Positions 5,472 through 40,373 of a DNA stretch of 64,000 bases are shown here, one piece after another. Position 1 is the first letter of the stretch. Every line of letters begins with the position of its first letter. A program made the translations under genes and the position numbers. The stretch is from contig VMSV01000204.1 in the NCBI GenBank assembly GCA_013791935.1, forward strand, positions 13,415-77,414, in the 5' to 3' direction. This DNA comes from Desulfobacteraceae bacterium. Lineage in GTDB: Bacteria; Desulfobacterota; Desulfobacteria; Desulfobacterales; UBA5616. The notes under the pieces were generated by a model. The model ran no database searches and was not told the origin of the DNA. It saw nothing but the letters and a program-made list of their open reading frames with translations.

Positions 5472-7430
5472 ATGGAACTTTATTTCCTGTCGTTGACCCT
5501 GATTTTCTCAGGAGGTTTTTTAGCCCTGATTTTGAACCGGCATTTCACCGCCATGAAACTTGCTGCGGTGATCCCCATCAGTGCCGGGTGCCTTCTGGGT
5601 CTGGCGGATGCCGTTGTCAAGCTGGTCCATGGCGGGTCGGATAAAACCTCTTTTGCCTATCTCAATGCTTTTTCCCTTGATTTTCAGATGGACGCGTTGT
5701 CGGCCTTTTTTTTGATCACCATATTTTTCATCTGCCTGCTGGCATCGATTTACAGCTTCCATTATATAAACAAGCCTGAAAAGACCCTGAAATCTTCGGT
5801 GAGCTATCTTTTCTTTGCCATGCTCATTGTGGCCATGGCCCTGGTGGTGACGGCCAACAACATGATCGCTTTTCTTCTCTCCTGGGAAATCATGTCCATT
5901 TCCTCCTTTTTCCTGGTGATCTACAGCTATACGTCTTCGGAAAACCGATATGCCGGACGTCTTTATTTTATTTTCTCCCAGGTGGGGGCCATGTTCATTT
6001 TTGCCGCTTTCGGCCTGGTGTATCAGGTGACGGGTAATTTTGGATTCACTGATGCGGCAACCCTTTCCCAAGGGGTAAAACTGCTGGTGTTCATTTTTAC
6101 TTTTATCGGATTTGGTTCCAAGGCCGGGGTGTTTCCCCTGCATGTCTGGCTTCCCCACGCCCACCCTGCGGCCCCAAGCCACATCTCGGCGGTGATGTCC
6201 GGGGTCATGATCAAAACCGGCATTTACGGAATTTTAAGAATGTATGCTGTTTTGGACCTGCACACGCCCATTTTGGGGAACATTGTTCTGGCCGCGGGCA
6301 TGGTGTCAGGCATCCTGGGAGTGGTTTACGCACTGGGGCAACATGATCTGAAAAGGCTTCTGGCATACCACAGCGTTGAAAACATCGGCATCATCCTCAT
6401 TGGCCTGGGCATCGGCATGATGGGGGTTTCTTCGGGTAAACCCGTGATGGCGGTGATGGGGTTCGCCGGTGGGCTGCTTCATGTGATGAATCATGCCATT
6501 TTTAAATCCCTTCTGTTTATGGGTGCGGGAATGGTCCTTCAAAAAACCGGCACCGGGACCCTGGACGTTCTTGGTGGGCTACTTAAAAAAATGAAAATCA
6601 CCGGGGCCACGTTTCTGATCGGGTCCATGGCCATTTCGGGGCTTCCGCCCTTTAACGGATTCGTAAGTGAGTTTTTTATCTACCTGGGGGCGTTCAAAGG
6701 AGTCTTGCTCACCGGAAAGCCCCTTGTATTGAGCTTTTTGGGCATTGTGAGCCTGGCGGTCATCGGCGGCCTGGCCCTGGCCTGTTTCACCAAAGTGTTG
6801 GGGGTGGTGTTCCAGGGAGAGCCCAGAAGTGAAGCGGCCAAAGACGTTAATGAGGATGGCTGGTCCATGCTGGTCCCCATGGTGATCCTTGCCGCGTGTT
6901 GTGTGATCATCGGGGTTTACCCAAAATGGTTCATTCTGGCAGCGGTCAAAGCCATCTATTCCCTTAACCCGGGGTACGGTCACATCCCCCTGGATGGTTT
7001 TATTGAGATCACCGGCAATATCTCCCGGGCCGCGTCCCTTTTCTTTGGGGTGATTCTTTTGGTTTTTGCCATTCGTTTCCTGGCGTACAAAAACAAACCC
7101 ATCACCCGGAGAGGGACATGGGGATGCGGTTTTACCCAGCCCACGGCAAGAATGCAGTATACCGGATCATCCTATGCCGCGTCCATTCTAGAATTTTTCA
7201 GGCCGGTGGCTCCTCTGGAAGAACATCATACGGAAATTTCCGGCGTGTTTCCCAAACAGACCCATTATGCCGGCCATGTTCATGACATTGCCGAACGATA
7301 TATGAAAAGGGTGACCGTTTATCCGGTGATGACCCTGTTTGACAAGCTTCGCTTTATTCAGCACGGGGATATCCACCTGTACATCGGGTATATCCTGCTG
7401 GCAATCGTCGTGCTTTTGTTCTTTATATAG
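5472..7430 (+). CDS. complex I NuoL / hydrogenase-4 HyfB / Mrp antiporter-like membrane subunit
   Basis: 652-aa polytopic membrane protein with the proton-pumping antiporter motif WLPHAHPAAPSHISAVMSGVMIKTGIYG. First gene of the six-gene module. Confidence 0.8.
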   Translation: MELYFLSLTLIFSGGFLALILNRHFTAMKLAAVIPISAGCLLGLADAVVKLVHGGSDKTSFAYLNAFSLDFQMDALSAFFLITIFFICLLASIYSFHYINKPEKTLKSSVSYLFFAMLIVAMALVVTANNMIAFLLSWEIMSISSFFLVIYSYTSSENRYAGRLYFIFSQVGAMFIFAAFGLVYQVTGNFGFTDAATLSQGVKLLVFIFTFIGFGSKAGVFPLHVWLPHAHPAAPSHISAVMSGVMIKTGIYGILRMYAVLDLHTPILGNIVLAAGMVSGILGVVYALGQHDLKRLLAYHSVENIGIILIGLGIGMMGVSSGKPVMAVMGFAGGLLHVMNHAIFKSLLFMGAGMVLQKTGTGTLDVLGGLLKKMKITGATFLIGSMAISGLPPFNGFVSEFFIYLGAFKGVLLTGKPLVLSFLGIVSLAVIGGLALACFTKVLGVVFQGEPRSEAAKDVNEDGWSMLVPMVILAACCVIIGVYPKWFILAAVKAIYSLNPGYGHIPLDGFIEITGNISRAASLFFGVILLVFAIRFLAYKNKPITRRGTWGCGFTQPTARMQYTGSSYAASILEFFRPVAPLEEHHTEISGVFPKQTHYAGHVHDIAERYMKRVTVYPVMTLFDKLRFIQHGDIHLYIGYILLAIVVLLFFI

Positions 7431-7445
7431 GGATTGTTTAACACC

Positions 7446-7571
7446 GAAATGGCCAATTTGCCCAATTTCTGCGTTGGACAAAAATTTTAATCCTCAAAAT
7501 ACTATAAGTATTCCTGCGGTTAAAATTTTTGTCCGCCTTGAACTTGAACAAATTTTCTCATTTCTGGATGG
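7446..7571 (+). repeat. MITE-like ~130-bp structured repeat, copy 1, in the intergenic leader before the NuoH-like gene
   Basis: About 90% identical to the reverse complement of 39591-39723. Contains a 15-bp perfect stem GGACAAAAATTTTAA...TTAAAATTTTTGTCC with a nested AATACT/AGTATT hairpin. Ends 37 nt before the ATG at 7609. Confidence 0.6.
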
Positions 7572-7608
7572 GCAATAGGTAGTTTCCATTCAATAAAAAG
7601 GGAACCTG

Positions 7609-8526
7609 ATGATTTCTATTCTTCTTTACATTCTTGCGATTCTTGTTTCACCGTTTTTTGCTGCGGTGATTCTCAAGGTGAAGGCCTTTTTCGGAGGGAA
7701 AAAGGGTCCGCCCCTGCTCATCCATTACTACACCCTGATCAAGCTCTTTAAAAAAGGATCGGTCTACAGCACCAGCACGACCTATATCTTTAAACTAGGG
7801 CCCGTGGTTTCTCTGGGCACGGCGGCAACCGCGTTGATGTTTCTTCCCATCGCCGGTTTTTCACCGCTTATTTCATTCAAGGGCGATATCATTTTTGTTT
7901 TTTACCTTCTGGCCCTGGGCCGGTTTTTCACCATTGCCGCAGCCATGGACACAGCCTCCCCGTTTGAAGGCATGGGGGCGGCTCGGGAAGCCTATTTCCC
8001 CATCATCTGTGAGGCTACCTCCTTCATGATCGTGATCCTGTTCTCCCGGCTTTCCGGAGAATTGAACCTGGCCGCCTATTTTTCCGAGAACCAGCCCATG
8101 GTTCTGTGGCAGAATGCCGGGGCTGCTCTTGTTTTTGTGGTGGTGGCGTTTTTCATTGTACTTCTCACGGAAAACGCCAGGGTTCCCGTGGACGACCCAG
8201 CCACCCATCTGGAGTTGACCATGATCCATGAGGTCATGGTTCTGGACCATAGCGGCCCGGATTTCGGATTGATTGAACTCGGGTCTTTTATAAAATTGTT
8301 TTTTTATTCAACCATCGTGGCGAGACTGGTTTTCCCCTTTGATTTGGGGAGCGGAGTGGCCAACGGCGGGGCTTTTGCCCTTACCCTGTTGTTCCTTTAT
8401 ACGGTGGCAGGGGTGGTTGAGTCGATCATGGCGCGCTACAGAATGGACAAGGTGCCCAAATTTATCCTCACCTCCTTTGCCCTGGCCTTTGTGGCAACCC
8501 TGATCACCCTGGAGGTCATAAGATGA
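7609..8526 (+). CDS. complex I NuoH / formate hydrogenlyase subunit 4 (HycD/HyfC)-like membrane subunit
   Basis: 305-aa membrane protein with NuoH/HycD-like helices. RBS AAAGGGAACC. Confidence 0.75.
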   Translation: MISILLYILAILVSPFFAAVILKVKAFFGGKKGPPLLIHYYTLIKLFKKGSVYSTSTTYIFKLGPVVSLGTAATALMFLPIAGFSPLISFKGDIIFVFYLLALGRFFTIAAAMDTASPFEGMGAAREAYFPIICEATSFMIVILFSRLSGELNLAAYFSENQPMVLWQNAGAALVFVVVAFFIVLLTENARVPVDDPATHLELTMIHEVMVLDHSGPDFGLIELGSFIKLFFYSTIVARLVFPFDLGSGVANGGAFALTLLFLYTVAGVVESIMARYRMDKVPKFILTSFALAFVATLITLEVIR

Positions 8527-9171: not shown

Positions 9172-10593
9172 ATGGTGGAAATCCTTTTTCTGGTTCCTTT
9201 TCTTACGGGCGTGCTCTCGTTTTTTCTGCCGAGCAAACCCGGCCGGAGCATGCTGGTGCTGACCGGCGCGATTCACTTCGTACTGACCCTTGTGCTCTGG
9301 ATCATTCGGCCCGGGGCCCTGATGCCCGCCTATTTCATGGTGACACCGGAAGGCCTTTTGTCCCTGTCGGTGATTTCCCTCCTCTTTCTGTTGATCTCCA
9401 TCTACACGACGGCGTATATCGAGAGCGCCCACATCCGCAATGAAAAGGTTTTCATCGGATCCATGCTGCTTTTTTTGTCCACCATGACCATGGTCACCCT
9501 TTCAGACCATATCATGGTCATGTGGATTGCCATAGAATCCACCACCCTGGCCAGTGCACCCTTGATCTACACGTCCGGGTCCCCGAAATCCCTGGAAACC
9601 ACCTGGAAATACGTTTTCATCTGCTCCGTGGGGATTGCTATGGCGCTTTTGGGCTCGGTCCTGATTTCCCTGGCCGTGGATGCGGGTGGTGAAAATGTCC
9701 CCATGTCTTTTTCAGCGCTTTCCGCGCAAGCCCCTCGCCTTGATAGCATGTGGCTCAAAGCCGGTTTTATTTTTATCCTCGTGGGATACGGGACCAAAAT
9801 GGGGCTTGCACCCATGCACACCTGGCTTCCCGATGCCCATAGCGAGGCCCCGAGCCCCGTGTCGGCCCTGCTCTCCGGCGTGCTGCTCAATTGCGCCTAT
9901 CTGGGTATTTTTAAAACCCACAAAATCATGGTCAGCGCCGGGTTGGCTGATTTCTCGGGAACCCTTCTCATGGCCTTCGGGATCGTCTCCATTCTGGCCG
10001 CCGCCACCTTTATTCTCAAACAGGGGGAGTACAAGCGCCTTTTGGCCTATTCCAGCATCGAAAATATGGGGATTATCGCTTTCGGAACCGGGCTGGGGGG
10101 CATCGGGGTTTACGGCGCCATACTCTGTCTGATTCATCACAGCCTGATCAAATCCTCTTTGTTTTTAACCTCGGGCAATATTCTACTGGGGTACGGCAAT
10201 CGTTTGATCGTGCAAACGGGAAACCTGGCCGGTCAAATGCCAAAAACTTTTGTGGCCTTTTTCGCCGGATTTGTGGGAATATCCGGTTTTCCGCCCTTCG
10301 GCATATTCATGGGAGAATTGCTGATCATCGTGGGGGCTTTCCGCACGGGGCATACGATTTGGGCCGGTATCTTCATTGCAAGCCTTTGCATCATCGTCGC
10401 CGGGTTTGTTAATCAGGTCATGCGGATATCCTTTGATGATGCCCCGAAAACCGTTAATTTTAAGGAAAAAGCACGGTTGATCTGGCCCCAGTTTACCTTG
10501 CTTGCGACCTCGGTGGTTTTAAGCTTCTGGATACCCGATGTGGTGTACCTGGAAATCGTCAATGCAGTGGTGTCCGTGGGTGGGGGATTTTAA
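9172..10593 (+). CDS. complex I NuoN/NuoM / HyfF-like antiporter-type membrane subunit
   Basis: 473 aa with the Mrp-type motif WLPDAHSEAPSPVSALLSGVLLNCAYLG. AAGGAG RBS. Confidence 0.8.
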   Translation: MVEILFLVPFLTGVLSFFLPSKPGRSMLVLTGAIHFVLTLVLWIIRPGALMPAYFMVTPEGLLSLSVISLLFLLISIYTTAYIESAHIRNEKVFIGSMLLFLSTMTMVTLSDHIMVMWIAIESTTLASAPLIYTSGSPKSLETTWKYVFICSVGIAMALLGSVLISLAVDAGGENVPMSFSALSAQAPRLDSMWLKAGFIFILVGYGTKMGLAPMHTWLPDAHSEAPSPVSALLSGVLLNCAYLGIFKTHKIMVSAGLADFSGTLLMAFGIVSILAAATFILKQGEYKRLLAYSSIENMGIIAFGTGLGGIGVYGAILCLIHHSLIKSSLFLTSGNILLGYGNRLIVQTGNLAGQMPKTFVAFFAGFVGISGFPPFGIFMGELLIIVGAFRTGHTIWAGIFIASLCIIVAGFVNQVMRISFDDAPKTVNFKEKARLIWPQFTLLATSVVLSFWIPDVVYLEIVNAVVSVGGGF

Positions 10594-12110
10594 TGAAAAC
10601 GAATTTTTTAACACTGGATAACGGCCGGGCCGTCCCAAGGGACAAGATTCCCCATTTGTCCTTTGAGAATTTTCGGGAAGAAGCATTGGCCATCGTGGGG
10701 GACGGCGGCAATGTGGTGCAATTTTTCGCTTACCAGGACACGGATCACACGCTTAAAATGCTGGCTGTTCTAAGATCGAAGGACCATACCCTGCTTGCAG
10801 CGGGTTGTGATGCTCCGCCTTCCTGGCCCGCCCTTTCCGCGATCTGCAGGCCTTTTCATTTGTTTGAACGGGAAATGGCCGAACAGTTCGGCCTTCGGCC
10901 CGAAGGGCACCCCTGGTTGAAAATGGTCCGATACCATGCCAACTGGATGGGGAAGGAAGACATTTTCGGAAACGATTATAGGGAAGATATTCCGGGAAAC
11001 TATGACTATTACTCCGTGACCGGAGATGAGATTCATGAGGTTGCGGTGGGACCGGTTCATGCGGGGGTCATCGAGCCCGGCCATTTCAGGTTCAACTGCA
11101 TCGGCGAAAAGGTGTTGCACCTGGAGATTCAATTGGGCTATCAGCATCGGGGGGTGGAGCTATTGCTTCTCAAGGCCGGGGCTTCCCGTCTGCCCATTAT
11201 TGCTGAAGGCATTGCAGGCGATACCGCCATCGGTCACAGCCTTTGCATGGCCCAGGCCGTGGAGGGACTTGCGGGTATTGAAGTGGATCAGGGGGCCAGA
11301 ATCAGTCGAACCATTGCCCTGGAACTGGAGCGCATTGCAAATCATGTGGGAGATTTGGGCGCCTTGAGCGGAGATGTGGCCTTTCTGCCCGTGGCCAACT
11401 ACTGCGGAAGAATGCGGGGAGATTTTCTCAATATGTCCCTGTGGATGTGCGGAAACCGTTTCGGCAAAGGCCTGGTTCGTCCGGGGGGGGTACGCTTTGC
11501 CTTGACCGATGAAGACAGAAGCGTGCTTCTGGGGCGCATCAACGAGTTGAAACCCCAGGTGGAACATGTCATCGATCTTCTATTCTCAACCTCCAGTGTT
11601 CGCGCCAGGTTTGAAGACTGCGGGGTGGTGCCCACCGAGATTGCCAAAAAACTGGGACTTGTGGGGCCTTCGGGCCGGGCCAGCAGTTTGCCGTATGATG
11701 CTCGACGCTGCTTTCCCACGGAATATTACTCTCAATTGTCGATTCCCGAAAGCGCCCTGGCCGGTTGCGATGTTTATGCCCGGGCCAGAGTCCGCGCCGA
11801 TGAAGTGCTTCAATCCATAGGAATCATTCAATCTTTGCTTTCCCATTCGGTGAATACTCACCCGGTGGAAACAATTGATTTTGCCCTGGCTCCGTCTTCT
11901 TTTACGGTGGCGATCAATGAAGCCTGGCGGGGGGAAGTCTCCCATGCCCTTCTCACCGACGGAAATGGCAAACTGCTTCGGTATAAAATCAAGGATCCGT
12001 CCTTTCACAACTGGAACGGTCTGGCCATGGCCTTAAGGAATACGGGAATTTCGGATTTCCCCTTGAACAACAAGAGCTTTAACCTGTCTTACTGCGGGTT
12101 TGATCTTTGA
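10593..12110 (+). CDS. fused NuoC-NuoD / HycE-like large subunit lacking all four Ni-Fe ligating cysteines (Ehr-type)
   Basis: GPVHAGVIEPGHFRF and YQHRGVE are conserved. The L1 motif RxCGxCxxxH reads EGIAGDTAIGH (Cys to Ala, Cys to Thr) in a gap-free alignment with the EchE sequence written from memory. The C-terminus ends ...NLSYCGFDL with no DPCxxCxxR motif. ATG overlaps the upstream TAA. Confidence 0.8.
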   Translation: MKTNFLTLDNGRAVPRDKIPHLSFENFREEALAIVGDGGNVVQFFAYQDTDHTLKMLAVLRSKDHTLLAAGCDAPPSWPALSAICRPFHLFEREMAEQFGLRPEGHPWLKMVRYHANWMGKEDIFGNDYREDIPGNYDYYSVTGDEIHEVAVGPVHAGVIEPGHFRFNCIGEKVLHLEIQLGYQHRGVELLLLKAGASRLPIIAEGIAGDTAIGHSLCMAQAVEGLAGIEVDQGARISRTIALELERIANHVGDLGALSGDVAFLPVANYCGRMRGDFLNMSLWMCGNRFGKGLVRPGGVRFALTDEDRSVLLGRINELKPQVEHVIDLLFSTSSVRARFEDCGVVPTEIAKKLGLVGPSGRASSLPYDARRCFPTEYYSQLSIPESALAGCDVYARARVRADEVLQSIGIIQSLLSHSVNTHPVETIDFALAPSSFTVAINEAWRGEVSHALLTDGNGKLLRYKIKDPSFHNWNGLAMALRNTGISDFPLNNKSFNLSYCGFDL

Positions 12111-36885: not shown

Positions 36886-39564
36886 TCACACTCCCCTTCT
36901 TTCTTCCTTCCCAAGGCCGATCACCTCTTGGATTTTGGCGGCAAGCTCCTGAATGGTAAATGGTTTTTGAATTAAATGCACTCCTGGATCCATCACACCG
37001 TGATGGGCGATGGCATCGGCCGTGTACCCGGACATAAAAAGGACTTTGATCTTCGGGAAAAGGGACGTAAGCTGCCCGGATAGATCCGGTCCGTTCATTT
37101 CCGGCATGATGACATCGGTGATGAGCAGATCAATGGTGCCGGAGCAAGCCTCGGCAAGAATCAAGGCTTCTCCCGGAGCATTGGCCGTCATCACGGTGTA
37201 GCCGAGCTTTTCCAGCATGATCGCCGTCATCTTCAGAATCGCCGCCTCGTCCTCCACCACCAAAACGGTCTCCCCCTTGCCCTGCCGGACGACCGAAGGG
37301 ATTTTGGCAGGAATCATCCCGGTTTCGCCCTGGTAGCGAGGCAGATGGATCTTTACCAAGGTCCCTTTGCCCGGTTCACTGGAAACATGGATGAATCCAT
37401 GGTTCTGCTTGACGATGCCGTACACCGTGGCCAGGCCCAAGCCGGTGCCCTCTCCCACCTCCTTGGTGGTGAAAAAAGGCTCGAATAGATTGTCCATAAT
37501 CTCTTTTTCCATGCCGTGACCATTGTCCCTCACCGTCAGCACGACATAGTCCCCCGGGGAAGCTCCCGAATGCTCGGAACAGTATTCTTCATCCAAACTC
37601 ACCCGGCCGGTTTCGATGGTGATCTTGCCCACCCCGGTGATGGCGTCCCGGGCGTTGATGCACAGATTGGCCAAAATCTGGTCGATTTGCGACGGATCCA
37701 TCCTCACCGGCCAGACTTTCGCGCCGGGCAGCCAGACCAGGTCGATATCCTCATCGATGAGTCGCCGAAGCATCTTGAGCATCCCTTCCACCGTCTCGTT
37801 CAGGTCGAGTACTCGGGGAGATATGGTCTGTTTGCGGGCAAAGGCCAGCAATTGCCGGACCACCTCCGTGGACCGTTTGGCTGCGTTTAAAATTTCTCCA
37901 AGAGCATCATGAACGGGATCATCCGGAGCCACCCTGTCCATGGCCAGCTCCGCATAACCGTTGATGACGCTGAGCATGTTGTTGAAATCGTGTGCCACGC
38001 CGCCTGCGAGCCTTCCCACGGACTCCATCTTCCGGGCCTGCTGAACCTCGGCTTCCAGCCGCAGTTGCCCCGTAATGTCCCGTTTGACGGCAACAAAGCT
38101 GATGATCTTGCCCCCGGAATCCCGAACCGGAGAAATCGTGGTCTCATCCGTGTAGAGGGTTCCGTTCTTCCGTTTGTTGACCATGCGTCCTTGCCATGTT
38201 TCACCGGATTTGATGGTGGTCCAGAGATCCTCGTAAAAAACCCTGTCCTGTTTCCCGCTTTTCAGGAAACGCGGGTTTTTTCCCAGAATTTCTTCTTCGG
38301 CATATCCAGTGGCCCGCTCAAAGGCGGGGTTGACATACTGGATGGCGCCGTGGCCGTCGGTGGTAAAAATGATATCGCCAGCCTGCTCAATGGCGGCCAT
38401 CATCCGTTCCCGCTCCATGGAGGCTTGTTTTTGTTCGGTGATGTCGCTGAAAACCCCCAACACGCCTACAGTATTCCCGTCTTTGTCTCGAATCGGTGTT
38501 TTAATCGTATAGGCCCAGGCAGTCCTGCCGCTTGTCACGTATTGCTCCTCAAGGCTCTCCGTTTTGCCGGAGGTCATGACCCGAAAATCGTCGGCCCGGT
38601 ATTTTTCGGCCAGCTCTCGGGTGAAGAGGTCATAGTCGGTCTTTCCGGCGATTTCCTCCTGCCTGATGCCCAGATCTCGGACAAAGTTCTCGTTGCAGGA
38701 CAGGTAGACCGACTGCCGGTCTTTTGCGAAAATCGCCTGTGGAAGGCTTTCAACCAGGGTGCGGTATTTTCCTTCGCTCGCGCGCAAGGCATCCATCACC
38801 TGTTTGCGTTCGGTGATGTCATGGGCCACTCCGCGAACGATGGGTTCTTCGGCTTCCTTGGAGCGCAGGGTGGTATGGTATTCCCAGATGAGTTTTTTGC
38901 CCGACCTGGATTGAACGGCAAGCAGGCCCTTGACCTCGCCTTGGGTTTCCACCGTTTTGAGGTATTCATCAAACGCACGGGTGGTTTCCGGCATTAGGAT
39001 ATCCCGAAGATTCATCTGCAGCAGGGTGTCCCTGTCAAAACCTAAAACGGTCGCCGCCCATGGATTCACCGAAAGAATGCGGCCTTTGAGATCGTGTGTG
39101 CAGATGAGGTCCCGGCTGTTTTCCACCAGGTCCCGGTATCGGTCTTCGCTCTCGCGCAAGGCCTCCTCGGCTTTCTTGCGGCCGGTGATGTCGCTGATGA
39201 TGTGCACTGCGCCGGAATACTGTCCGGCTGCGTCAAGGATGAGATCTACCGTAACCTGGAACCAGCTCTCGTCGGCTTTCAACTCCATGCTCTCGCGATG
39301 CAGGCTTATTTCTGCCCGCTTCAGGGGGCATTCGGGGATGGGTCGGGCCGTATGGTGTAAGATTTCCCAGCAGTGCCGGCCGATCAAATCCGGAAATGAA
39401 TCCTGGAACATTCGCTTTGCCGTTTTGTTGGCCTGCAGGATGCGCTGGTCCTTGTCGAGAATCCATATGGCGTCATTGGTGGCGTCAAAGGTCGTCCGCC
39501 AGTGACGCAATTCCTCTTCCCGGTTGTCCACGGCCGAAATGCCCGTATTTTCAAAATCCGTCAT
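36886..39564 (-). CDS. multi-PAS hybrid sensor histidine kinase/response regulator (HK5)
   Basis: At least 4 PAS/PAC repeats, then HisKA ([28 protein letters not shown]), HATPase and REC. Start set at MTDFENTG (GAGGTG RBS). The track ORF begins at a TTG inside the repeat element. Confidence 0.8.
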   Translation of the reverse strand: MTDFENTGISAVDNREEELRHWRTTFDATNDAIWILDKDQRILQANKTAKRMFQDSFPDLIGRHCWEILHHTARPIPECPLKRAEISLHRESMELKADESWFQVTVDLILDAAGQYSGAVHIISDITGRKKAEEALRESEDRYRDLVENSRDLICTHDLKGRILSVNPWAATVLGFDRDTLLQMNLRDILMPETTRAFDEYLKTVETQGEVKGLLAVQSRSGKKLIWEYHTTLRSKEAEEPIVRGVAHDITERKQVMDALRASEGKYRTLVESLPQAIFAKDRQSVYLSCNENFVRDLGIRQEEIAGKTDYDLFTRELAEKYRADDFRVMTSGKTESLEEQYVTSGRTAWAYTIKTPIRDKDGNTVGVLGVFSDITEQKQASMERERMMAAIEQAGDIIFTTDGHGAIQYVNPAFERATGYAEEEILGKNPRFLKSGKQDRVFYEDLWTTIKSGETWQGRMVNKRKNGTLYTDETTISPVRDSGGKIISFVAVKRDITGQLRLEAEVQQARKMESVGRLAGGVAHDFNNMLSVINGYAELAMDRVAPDDPVHDALGEILNAAKRSTEVVRQLLAFARKQTISPRVLDLNETVEGMLKMLRRLIDEDIDLVWLPGAKVWPVRMDPSQIDQILANLCINARDAITGVGKITIETGRVSLDEEYCSEHSGASPGDYVVLTVRDNGHGMEKEIMDNLFEPFFTTKEVGEGTGLGLATVYGIVKQNHGFIHVSSEPGKGTLVKIHLPRYQGETGMIPAKIPSVVRQGKGETVLVVEDEAAILKMTAIMLEKLGYTVMTANAPGEALILAEACSGTIDLLITDVIMPEMNGPDLSGQLTSLFPKIKVLFMSGYTADAIAHHGVMDPGVHLIQKPFTIQELAAKIQEVIGLGKEERRGV

Positions 39565-39590
39565 AAGCACCTCTATTTTTTTGATAGTGT

Positions 39591-39723
39591 CCATCCAGAA
39601 ACGAGAAAATTTGTTCAAGTTCAAGGCAGGTAAAAATTTTAACCACAGGAATACTCGACGTATTTTGAGGATTAAAATTTTTGCCTAACACAGAAATTGG
39701 GCAAATTGGCCGTTTCTGGATGG
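39591..39723 (-). repeat. MITE-like ~130-bp structured repeat, copy 2, with 13-bp terminal inverted repeats CCATCCAGAAACG
   Basis: Reverse complement is about 90% identical to 7446-7571. Flanked by CCATCCAGAAACG ... CGTTTCTGGATGG. Ends 27 nt upstream of the HK5 start on the minus strand. Confidence 0.6.
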
Positions 39724-40000
39724 GTACTATATAGAAAGGACCGAATTGAACATGTCTCAAACCCTATGGTGCTCAACCCGCAACGGCTTGCTTCCTTTAG
39801 CGATATGCAGTCCCACTTGGCGGGACAGTGGCTTATAGATACTGGATCAATTCCGGGATGACGCTTGGAGGCAATGTCAACCTATTATTCAACTAAAAGC
39901 CTGGAAAAATCAAGATTCGATTGCGTATTTCCTGAGGTATTGGCAATTCTTTCGGGAAAAGATCAAGGGGTGGATATTTTTTCAGGGGAATGGTTTTGCC

Positions 40001-40036
40001 AAAAAAAAATCAACCGGCCAATTGGCCGGTTGATTT
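40001..40036 (-). terminator. rho-independent terminator (minus strand): perfect 26-bp palindrome ATCAACCGGCCAATTGGCCGGTTGAT followed by a T9 run on the minus strand
   Basis: A9 run at 40001-40009 on the plus strand is a T9 run on the minus strand directly 3' of the GC-rich hairpin. Lies downstream of the FG-GAP gene. Confidence 0.6.
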
Positions 40037-40373
40037 CGGAGAGGAGAAAAAGATGAAGATTTTTTTGGTTTCGCTATGGTGAAATGCAATTCGATTGCCA
40101 AAGTTATTTTTTTGATAATCTTTTTTAAATTTTGAGGTCTATCTGTTTATTATTCAGCAGGTTAAAATTTATAAAATTATTATTTTCAGCCAATTGAATG
40201 GTTTCGCCAGTGCAGGTGGGCAAGGTTTTGTTCACCATATTGAACCCTGAAAATGACGTCATTTGATAAAAAATACTGATATTTAACAATATTTTGCATT
40301 AAATCGCAGAGTTCAAAATTTTGAACCCCGATCATAATTTTGTACACTGGTTTTCGCACCTTCAAATTAGGCA

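Follow-up and report, generated by a model that had tools for sequence, protein, structure and literature searches.

The 64,000-nt stretch of Desulfobacteraceae DNA analysed here (the window) holds two closely similar segments of about 130 nt, some 32 kb apart and on opposite strands. Each lies shortly upstream of a gene start, the one gene coding for a membrane redox subunit and the other for a sensor kinase. The locus raises the question of what such a segment is: a miniature mobile element, a promoter or leader carried from place to place, a regulatory RNA recruited to two unrelated genes, or a local duplication that arose by chance. We consider, with a probability of about 85%, that both segments are copies of a non-autonomous MITE family of about 141 bp that inhabits the Desulfobacteraceae/Desulfobacterales.

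The two copies in the window

When 7446–7574 (+) was aligned with 39716–39588 (−), the two segments were 89.1% identical over 129 nt without a gap. The identity of about 90% that the first-pass annotation had given, for 7446–7571 against 39591–39723, was therefore correct. Two long words, the 21-mer GGCCAATTTGCCCAATTTCTG and the 25-mer GCCTTGAACTTGAACAAATTTTCTC, have exactly two occurrences each in the window, and neither appeared in 100 shuffles. A relaxed nhmmer scan of the window showed no third copy. The boundaries of the copies were set from the target-site duplications across the whole family, and the features are as follows (labels such as L163 denote loci outside the window):

5472–7430 (+), gene for a NuoL-like antiporter subunit (Pfam Proton_antipo_M, E = 6e-52); its stop codon is the insertion target of copy 1
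7428–7433 (+), TAGGGA, the left target-site duplication of copy 1, which begins with the TAG stop of the NuoL-like gene
7434–7575 (+), probable MITE copy 1, 142 nt (nhmmer 137 bits; alignment; orthologous copy in L163)
7434–7575 (+), tips of copy 1: left TTGTTTAACACC instead of GTGYCCATCCA, right GGATGGGCAA
7446–7570 (+), conserved core hairpin of copy 1, GAAATGG...CATTTCTGGATG, holding the 15-bp stem and the apical hairpin at 7498–7512
7576–7581 (+), right target-site duplication of copy 1, TAGGTA
7609–8526 (+), NuoH/HyfC-like gene downstream of copy 1 (Pfam NADHdh, E = 1.5e-32)
36886–39564 (−), gene for a PAS/HisKA/HATPase/REC hybrid sensor kinase, downstream of copy 2 (Pfam)
39581–39586 (−), right target-site duplication of copy 2, TATCAA, followed by the Shine-Dalgarno sequence AGAGGTG and the ATG at 39564
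39587–39727 (−), probable MITE copy 2, 141 nt, with intact ends (nhmmer 142.6 bits; ortholog in L167, paralog in L161)
39728–39733 (−), left target-site duplication of copy 2, TATATA

The internal structure described earlier for copy 1 was found again: the perfect 15-bp stem is formed by GGACAAAAATTTTAA (7476–7490) and TTAAAATTTTTGTCC (7520–7534), and the inner hairpin AATACT-ATA-AGTATT lies at 7498–7512. The inverted repeats reported for copy 2, CCATCCAGAAACG and CGTTTCTGGATGG, were also confirmed, their true extent being 17 nt (GTACCCATCCAGAAACG, 39727–39711, and CGTTTCTGGATGGACAC, 39603–39587). The end of copy 1 that had been called degenerate is indeed so; it is the left one. The duplications that flank copy 2 match at 4 of 6 positions, and on these bases the target-site duplication appears partly decayed.

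Copy 1 is an old, immobilised copy. Copy 2 is a younger, intact one within the 5′ leader of the sensor-kinase gene; it is 98% identical to its paralog at another locus, L161, and no sign of a function was found for it.

The flanking genes had been named earlier as NuoH-like, within an Ehr-like operon, and as a PAS sensor kinase, and Pfam agrees with both. Beyond the NuoH/HyfC-like gene, the operon of copy 1 continues with NuoK-like, NuoM/N-like and fused NuoC/D-like genes. The fused NuoC/NuoD-like protein (10593–12110, +; C-terminus ...SYCGFDL) has neither the N-terminal nor the C-terminal CxxC nickel-binding motif. A protein of this sequence, devoid of the CxxC pairs, is consistent with an Ehr-type complex and not with a true hydrogenase.

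Upstream of copy 2 there is a gene-free region of about 650 nt (39728–40373, −), which is near-identical in the close relative L167. It contains a strong hairpin that resembles an intrinsic terminator (GAAATCAACCGGCCAATTGGCCGGTTGATTTT followed by a T-run, 40037–40006, −) and, past this hairpin, a sigma-70-like site (39913–39884, −). Possibly the region encodes a small RNA that has escaped annotation, or serves the kinase gene as a long leader; an Rfam search of it returned only sub-threshold noise.

A multi-copy element inserted recurrently at gene ends

The first-pass annotation had named a miniature mobile element with no associated transposase as one of its readings, and had proposed a search for further copies in the genome and its relatives and for target-site duplications. 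Both were found. Scanning one genome per species for an exact 18-mer gave 43 stretches, of which 13 carry full, split or 3′-truncated copies; these belong to six MAGs assigned to Desulfobacteraceae, Desulfobacterales or ‘Deltaproteobacteria’, which together have 12 full or near-full copies. The remaining stretches were chance matches of 18–20 nt. Metagenome contigs scanned with a pattern of the right arm gave at least 118 stretches. With a profile built from the first copies, we obtained at least 92 full-length elements at no fewer than 80 unique loci, and at least 73 independent loci were left once duplicates and orthologs had been dropped.

The copies are 138–144 bp long and carry no transposase gene, the ORFs called on them being short artefacts. 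Both ends have terminal inverted repeats of about 17 bp (GTGYCCRTCCAsAAATGG and its complement), and the left and right repeats covary between subfamilies. Among the matches listed, 51 of 81 loci have 6-bp flanking duplications that agree at no fewer than five positions, and in 32 the duplication is perfect. Their consensus among these listed matches is TARYTA (T 43, A 46, R 42, Y 35, T 43 and A 43 of 51), and this is flanked by Y and R, so that the target is the palindrome Y-TARYTA-R. The independent loci, the duplications and the element-free sites in relatives together identify the element as a MITE. It spans a bacterial order, is present in many copies, and has inserted recurrently at permissive sites at the ends of genes.

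The target can hold TAA or TAG, and insertions inside genes would be lost; copies would then gather at stop codons and in short intergenic spacers. The right edge of copy 1 is 33 nt from the ATG at 7609, and that of copy 2 is 22 nt from the ATG at 39564. It had been noted earlier that both copies end about 30 nt before a start codon in the same orientation relative to the gene. The orientation holds and the spacings are near that figure, but the meaning read into them is not supported, because copies gather in very short spacers and are brought close to gene starts as a by-product. Stop-codon targeting as a special property was considered and rejected: stop-associated insertions numbered 11 against 7.3 expected from a weight-matrix model with permissible sites, and are mostly explained by the TA-rich target and the avoidance of coding sequence.

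Several loci illustrate the behaviour of the family. Many copies lie at contig ends, because the repeat breaks assembly, and one copy is split across two contigs of a single MAG (L017 and L019). Near-identical copies exist within one genome (the Tobar G14 copies). In L037, another kind of MITE, 150 bp long and flanked by a 7-bp duplication, has inserted into a copy. Independent insertions in opposite orientations are found about 30–45 nt apart in the same convergent spacer of two related genomes (L154 and L122). At four loci (L016 5829–6029, L062 3495–3686, L105 10479–10654, and L081), a full copy is followed by exactly 6 bp and then by the first 45–54 nt of a second copy. Such a head-to-tail arrangement suggests either re-insertion into the duplication of the first copy or the junction of a tandem dimer, later shortened.

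Both in copy 2 and in the consensus of the family, the + strand of the element has one frame that is open from end to end, and the termini hold outward-reading ATGs (..GGATGGACAC). Gene callers therefore place spurious ORFs of 40–70 aa on the copies and extend real ORFs inward by 12 nt; examples are 39551–39760 (−) in the window, L163 2324–2479 and L162 466–597.

A second MITE family of about 150 bp, with the termini GATGGCTTCGTAAAAAGTC...GACTTTTTACGGGACGATC and a duplication of apparently 7 bp, resides in the same genomes. It was seen at L037 4574–4723, L015 (three), L016 1720–1865, L079 (three), L099, L139 and L141, and further at L062, L033, L096, L116, L055 and L105; it is absent from the window. 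It shares the internal motifs CCAATNTCTGCGT and CCTTGANCTTGAAC with the family of the window element.

The element would be moved by a transposase acting in trans. This putative enzyme would make 6-bp staggered cuts at the palindromic Y-TARYTA-R and so generate the 6-bp duplications, and we infer it to be of the DDE type since a duplication pattern of this length is typical of such enzymes. A search for an autonomous partner, that is, a pair of terminal repeats 0.4–5 kb apart with a duplication, found none in 1.16 Mb of loci. The ORFs beside partial copies were ordinary genes (GGDEF, LptD, PMT, HisD), and no transposase adjoined these or other copies. The only transposase-like gene near any copy is at L148 (5704–6663, −). 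It encodes a 319-aa protein with an N-terminal IS200-like Y1_Tnp domain (Pfam E = 1e-8), and lies about 1 kb from a shortened copy, probably by coincidence. The element had no match among PLSDB plasmids, and among viral contigs there was a single chance match, inside a coding region.

The family is new, although its kind is already well known from the ERIC, Correia and Chunjie elements; a literature search found no description of such elements in this clade or of MITEs in Desulfobacter-type bacteria. ERIC/IRU elements of Enterobacteria (127 bp) are like the window family in their similar size, in being imperfect palindromes over the whole length, and in occupying short transcribed intergenic spacers, inside operons too and in either orientation. 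They differ in their TA (2 bp) duplication and contiguous terminal repeats of about 7 bp, as against the 6-bp TARYTA and the repeats of about 17 bp found here, and in their hosts, which are Enterobacteria and not Desulfobacterales. Compared by eye, the ERIC consensus showed no resemblance to that of the window family.

The Correia/NEMIS elements of Neisseria duplicate TA and have terminal repeats of 26 bp; they contain an IHF site, outward promoters have been documented in them, and they are substrates of RNase III. They too are abundant MITEs beside gene ends, with long terminal repeats that pair in RNA, and are often co-transcribed with the flanking genes; the window family is unlike them in its 6-bp duplication, in a promoter signal that is not above chance, and in having no IHF core by eye. 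REP/BIME sequences (RAYT) are likewise intergenic palindromes with a strand-specific single-stranded fold, REPs being 20–40 nt long and stabilising upstream mRNA in E. coli. However, they are without such terminal inverted repeats or duplication, both of which the window family has. The MITE Chunjie of Geobacter uraniireducens lies inside an operon whose structure is kept, and has many full and partial copies (PMC10969869). It resembles the window family as a MITE of a deltaproteobacterial-grade lineage within an operon; the window family is set apart from it by size (Chunjie measures 178–235 bp) and by the IS, a cognate one having been proposed for Chunjie and none found here.

History and conservation of copy 1

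The window was compared with six orthologous operons (L163, L164, L165, L166, L169 and L170). A tree from the concatenated protein identities of five operons reads ((window,(L163,L165)),(L164,L166)). The spacers between the NuoL-like and NuoH-like genes are:

With the element: window (178 nt) and L163 (187 nt)
Without the element: L164 (57 nt), L165 (14 nt, by secondary deletion), L166 (33 nt, with a terminal-repeat remnant), L169 (55 nt) and L170 (53 nt)

The L163 copy occupies the same position as copy 1 and has the same non-canonical left tip (TTGTTTAA), and its left duplication, TAGGTA, equals the right duplication in the window. The shared position, tip and duplication indicate that the two copies descend from one ancestral insertion at the TAG stop of the NuoL-like gene. 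Copy 1 inserted there before the lineage of the window split from that of L163 and L165, and then lost its terminal repeats while its hairpin core stayed nearly unchanged.

In L165, the sister of L163 (92% protein identity), the deletion of the element also took adjacent spacer sequence. The element was thus dispensable in that lineage, and not essential. In the spacer of L166 (2468–2500), a solo terminal repeat of 18 nt, GTATCCATCCATAACTAA, is left over from an element that belonged to another subfamily. Hence the junction was struck at least twice, independently, and the element of L166 was later mostly deleted. Apparent remnants in the L164 and L170 spacers were matches of 9–10 nt, not significant, and were discarded.

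Compared with the neighbouring genes, the core of copy 1 has changed very little. At four-fold sites in the four flanking genes, the window and L163 are only 57–66% identical and so close to saturation. The core differs from its L163 ortholog at 4 positions in 125 nt, two of them in the apical loop; at 35% divergence, no more than 4 differences over this length would arise with a probability of 4e-18. The tips and duplications, by comparison, have 9 differences in 26 nt (core vs tips, Fisher p = 1.6e-5). In 5 of 7 distinct orthologous locus pairs, conservation was higher in the element than in either of its flanks, which are mostly coding; in L066/L031, for example, it was 96.5% identical against 85% for the flanks. 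Copy 2 has an ortholog in L167 only, with four-fold sites 87–92% identical and the element about 94%, this relative being too close for a test of selection.

Since the core is far more conserved than neutral sites, copy 1 may have a function, and on this sequence comparison we lean slightly towards purifying selection as what has retained the core. Gene conversion from unsampled copies is the alternative to selection. As to the sampled ones (about 95), copy 1 shares 90% identity with its nearest non-orthologous relative and 89% with copy 2 of its own genome, which argues against homogenisation by any of them.

How the core would serve the host is more tentative. By analogy with the ERIC and Correia elements, which act in such a manner, the hairpin of copy 1 could be co-transcribed and act in cis on the mRNA of the Ehr/Hyf-like operon, in processing, in stability or in decoupling the cistrons, a role to which we give somewhat less than even odds. 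Three observations speak against it. The element is wholly deleted in L165, the mRNA-sense strand is the one that folds worse, with its A.C mismatches unrepaired, and the near-total conservation of sequence exceeds what a constraint on structure alone would impose.

The rival account that survives best is that copy 1 is a neutral fossil with no selection by the host, its core having been kept alike by gene conversion from other genomic copies or by the recent transfer of a patch. The tips having lost their homology, conversion would be limited to the core. In favour of this account, a single genome may hold almost identical copies, as the Tobar G14 ones show; the loss in L165 had no obvious consequence, the same junction was struck independently in the L166 lineage, and conservation of sequence goes beyond the need of structure. 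Yet copies 1 and 2 are only 89% identical although they share a genome. A diagnostic variant of the stem, W1 (GGAC.../...GTCC; stem GGACAAAAATTTTAA), occurs only in the orthologous pair among the approximately 95 sampled copies, and the diverged tips and duplications directly beside the conserved core are against a recent recombination patch. On balance we regard the neutral account as rather unlikely, and selection on the core of copy 1 as the reading to be preferred.

Strand asymmetry, orientation and the remaining readings

The element folds over its whole length into a single imperfect hairpin; compared with dinucleotide shuffles, the z-scores range from −5.3 to −9.4. For copy 1, the folding energy was −38.5 kcal/mol for the mRNA-sense strand versus −47.5 kcal/mol for the antisense strand. 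For both window copies, the strand with the same sense as the flanking genes was taken as the + strand; the better-folding strand is thus antisense to both window genes. At non-Watson-Crick positions of the hairpin, the + strand has 409 A.C cells versus 24 G.T, and the minus strand reads these A.C cells as G.U wobbles. With RNAalifold, the plus strand reached −3.8 kcal/mol as against −39 to −46 kcal/mol on the minus strand, and the minus strand was the more stable one in all of 73 copies (means −61 vs −42 kcal/mol). Double compensatory changes between subfamilies were found in 21 of 50 pairs, in the terminal repeats and stems. The wobble bias is present in the consensus and in subfamily variants, and not in rare post-insertion variants, for which a mutation-spectrum test of the asymmetry is confounded. 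Its presence in the consensus and subfamily variants points to the master copies; the one-strand wobble looks like the result of selection on them.

Orientation relative to gene ends was counted over the 73 independent loci, among the matches listed, distance being taken from the stop of the nearest flanking ORF:

−4 to +5 nt from the stop: left end, co-directional upstream ORF, 27; right end, convergent ORF, 7
6 to 60 nt: left end 6; right end 13
61 to 400 nt: left end 10; right end 21
All distances: left end 43; right end 41

In the nearest class, the difference of 27 vs 7 is significant (binomial p = 0.0008). As many as 17 of the 27 left-end cases lie at exactly −1, where the stop is made up of TA from the duplication and G as the first base of the element; for the right end, 2 cases lie at −1. 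Because the totals are balanced, the bias reflects how orientation and distance interact (chi-square p = 1e-4). Copy 1 falls in the favoured orientation class at a stop codon. It is plausible, by analogy with ERIC, that a strongly pairing strand in the mRNA at the stop would conflict with the terminating ribosome or with mRNA stability, and that insertions of this kind would be removed. PMC2229807 describes an orientation-dependent effect of ERIC and Correia RNAs on the stability of the neighbouring mRNA and, for ERIC and citing De Gregorio 2005, a dependence on orientation and on the distance from the stop codon. This effect of ERIC on mRNA parallels the orientation-by-distance-to-stop pattern of the window family, which is a statistical one.

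A different view of the asymmetry is that the hairpin core is a functional single-stranded module, either an RNA or ssDNA that the putative transposase needs as intermediate or cofactor even though it makes 6-bp duplications, or a structured RNA that the host has domesticated repeatedly at the ends of genes. It fits the one-strand wobble, the conservation between orthologs and the motifs common to the second MITE family. We hold this to be a minority reading with a low probability; if it were true, the element would be more interesting than a plain MITE.

The first-pass annotation had also suggested that the element carries a promoter or leader. As a mobile promoter or 5′-UTR cassette it would drive or regulate the downstream gene, and both window copies do have the same orientation, 22–33 nt upstream of a start codon. 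Among the matches listed, the right end has a gene start facing it in 32 cases and the left end in 21, a slight excess that is not significant (p = 0.17). Scans for promoters and terminators inside the element gave nothing beyond chance: copy 1 has one 9-of-12 match to sigma-70, which is the chance level, and none that reads outward. Read by eye, the sequence had no sigma-54 spacing that fits and no IHF core of the ATCAA type. Moreover, 16 of 81 catalogued copies, again among the matches listed, lie between convergent genes and have no start to serve, and copy 1 sits within an operon that is contiguous in relatives. We therefore regard a promoter or leader cassette as very unlikely.

It is very unlikely, in our estimate, that the element is mobilised as ssDNA by a Y1 (HUH) transposase, like REP/BIME-RAYT or IS200/IS605-derived palindromes, or that its minus-strand RNA is needed for propagation. 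The strongly strand-asymmetric wobble and the greater stability of the minus strand in 73 of 73 copies would suit such a mechanism, as would the Y1_Tnp gene of L148, which has a partial copy some 1 kb away. Elements mobilised by Y1 enzymes (IS200/IS605, REP/RAYT), however, insert beside a fixed tetra- or pentanucleotide and make no duplication, whereas this element has variable 6-bp duplications and 17-bp terminal inverted repeats. The gene in L148 is a single case and does not adjoin the copy, and the rare post-insertion variants are without the wobble bias.

That the segments are a dedicated cis-regulatory structured RNA at two unrelated genes, as had also been proposed, has a probability close to nil in spite of the significant folding z-scores and the compensatory changes between the two window copies, given that no Rfam 15 family reached its gathering score anywhere in the window and that relaxing the threshold to E < 5 around the two copies brought up noise alone, that at least 73 independent loci with duplications occur in all gene contexts, and that the better-folding strand is antisense to both genes; the chance local duplication kept earlier as a fallback is excluded by the long words that never recurred in the shuffles and by the many copies elsewhere.

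The MITE reading bears on annotation. The repeat breaks MAG assemblies, spawns spurious gene calls of 40–70 aa, and can be mistaken for a riboswitch or an sRNA. For the Desulfobacteraceae, it adds a family of MITEs whose target follows a clear rule: TARYTA, in many cases a stop codon. There is also a natural comparison, in that an old immobilised copy is conserved in an energy-converting hydrogenase-like operon and lost in sister lineages. The orientation-by-distance pattern, together with the one-strand wobble, suggests that hairpin strength beside the terminating ribosome matters. If so, the ERIC model would reach a distant phylum.
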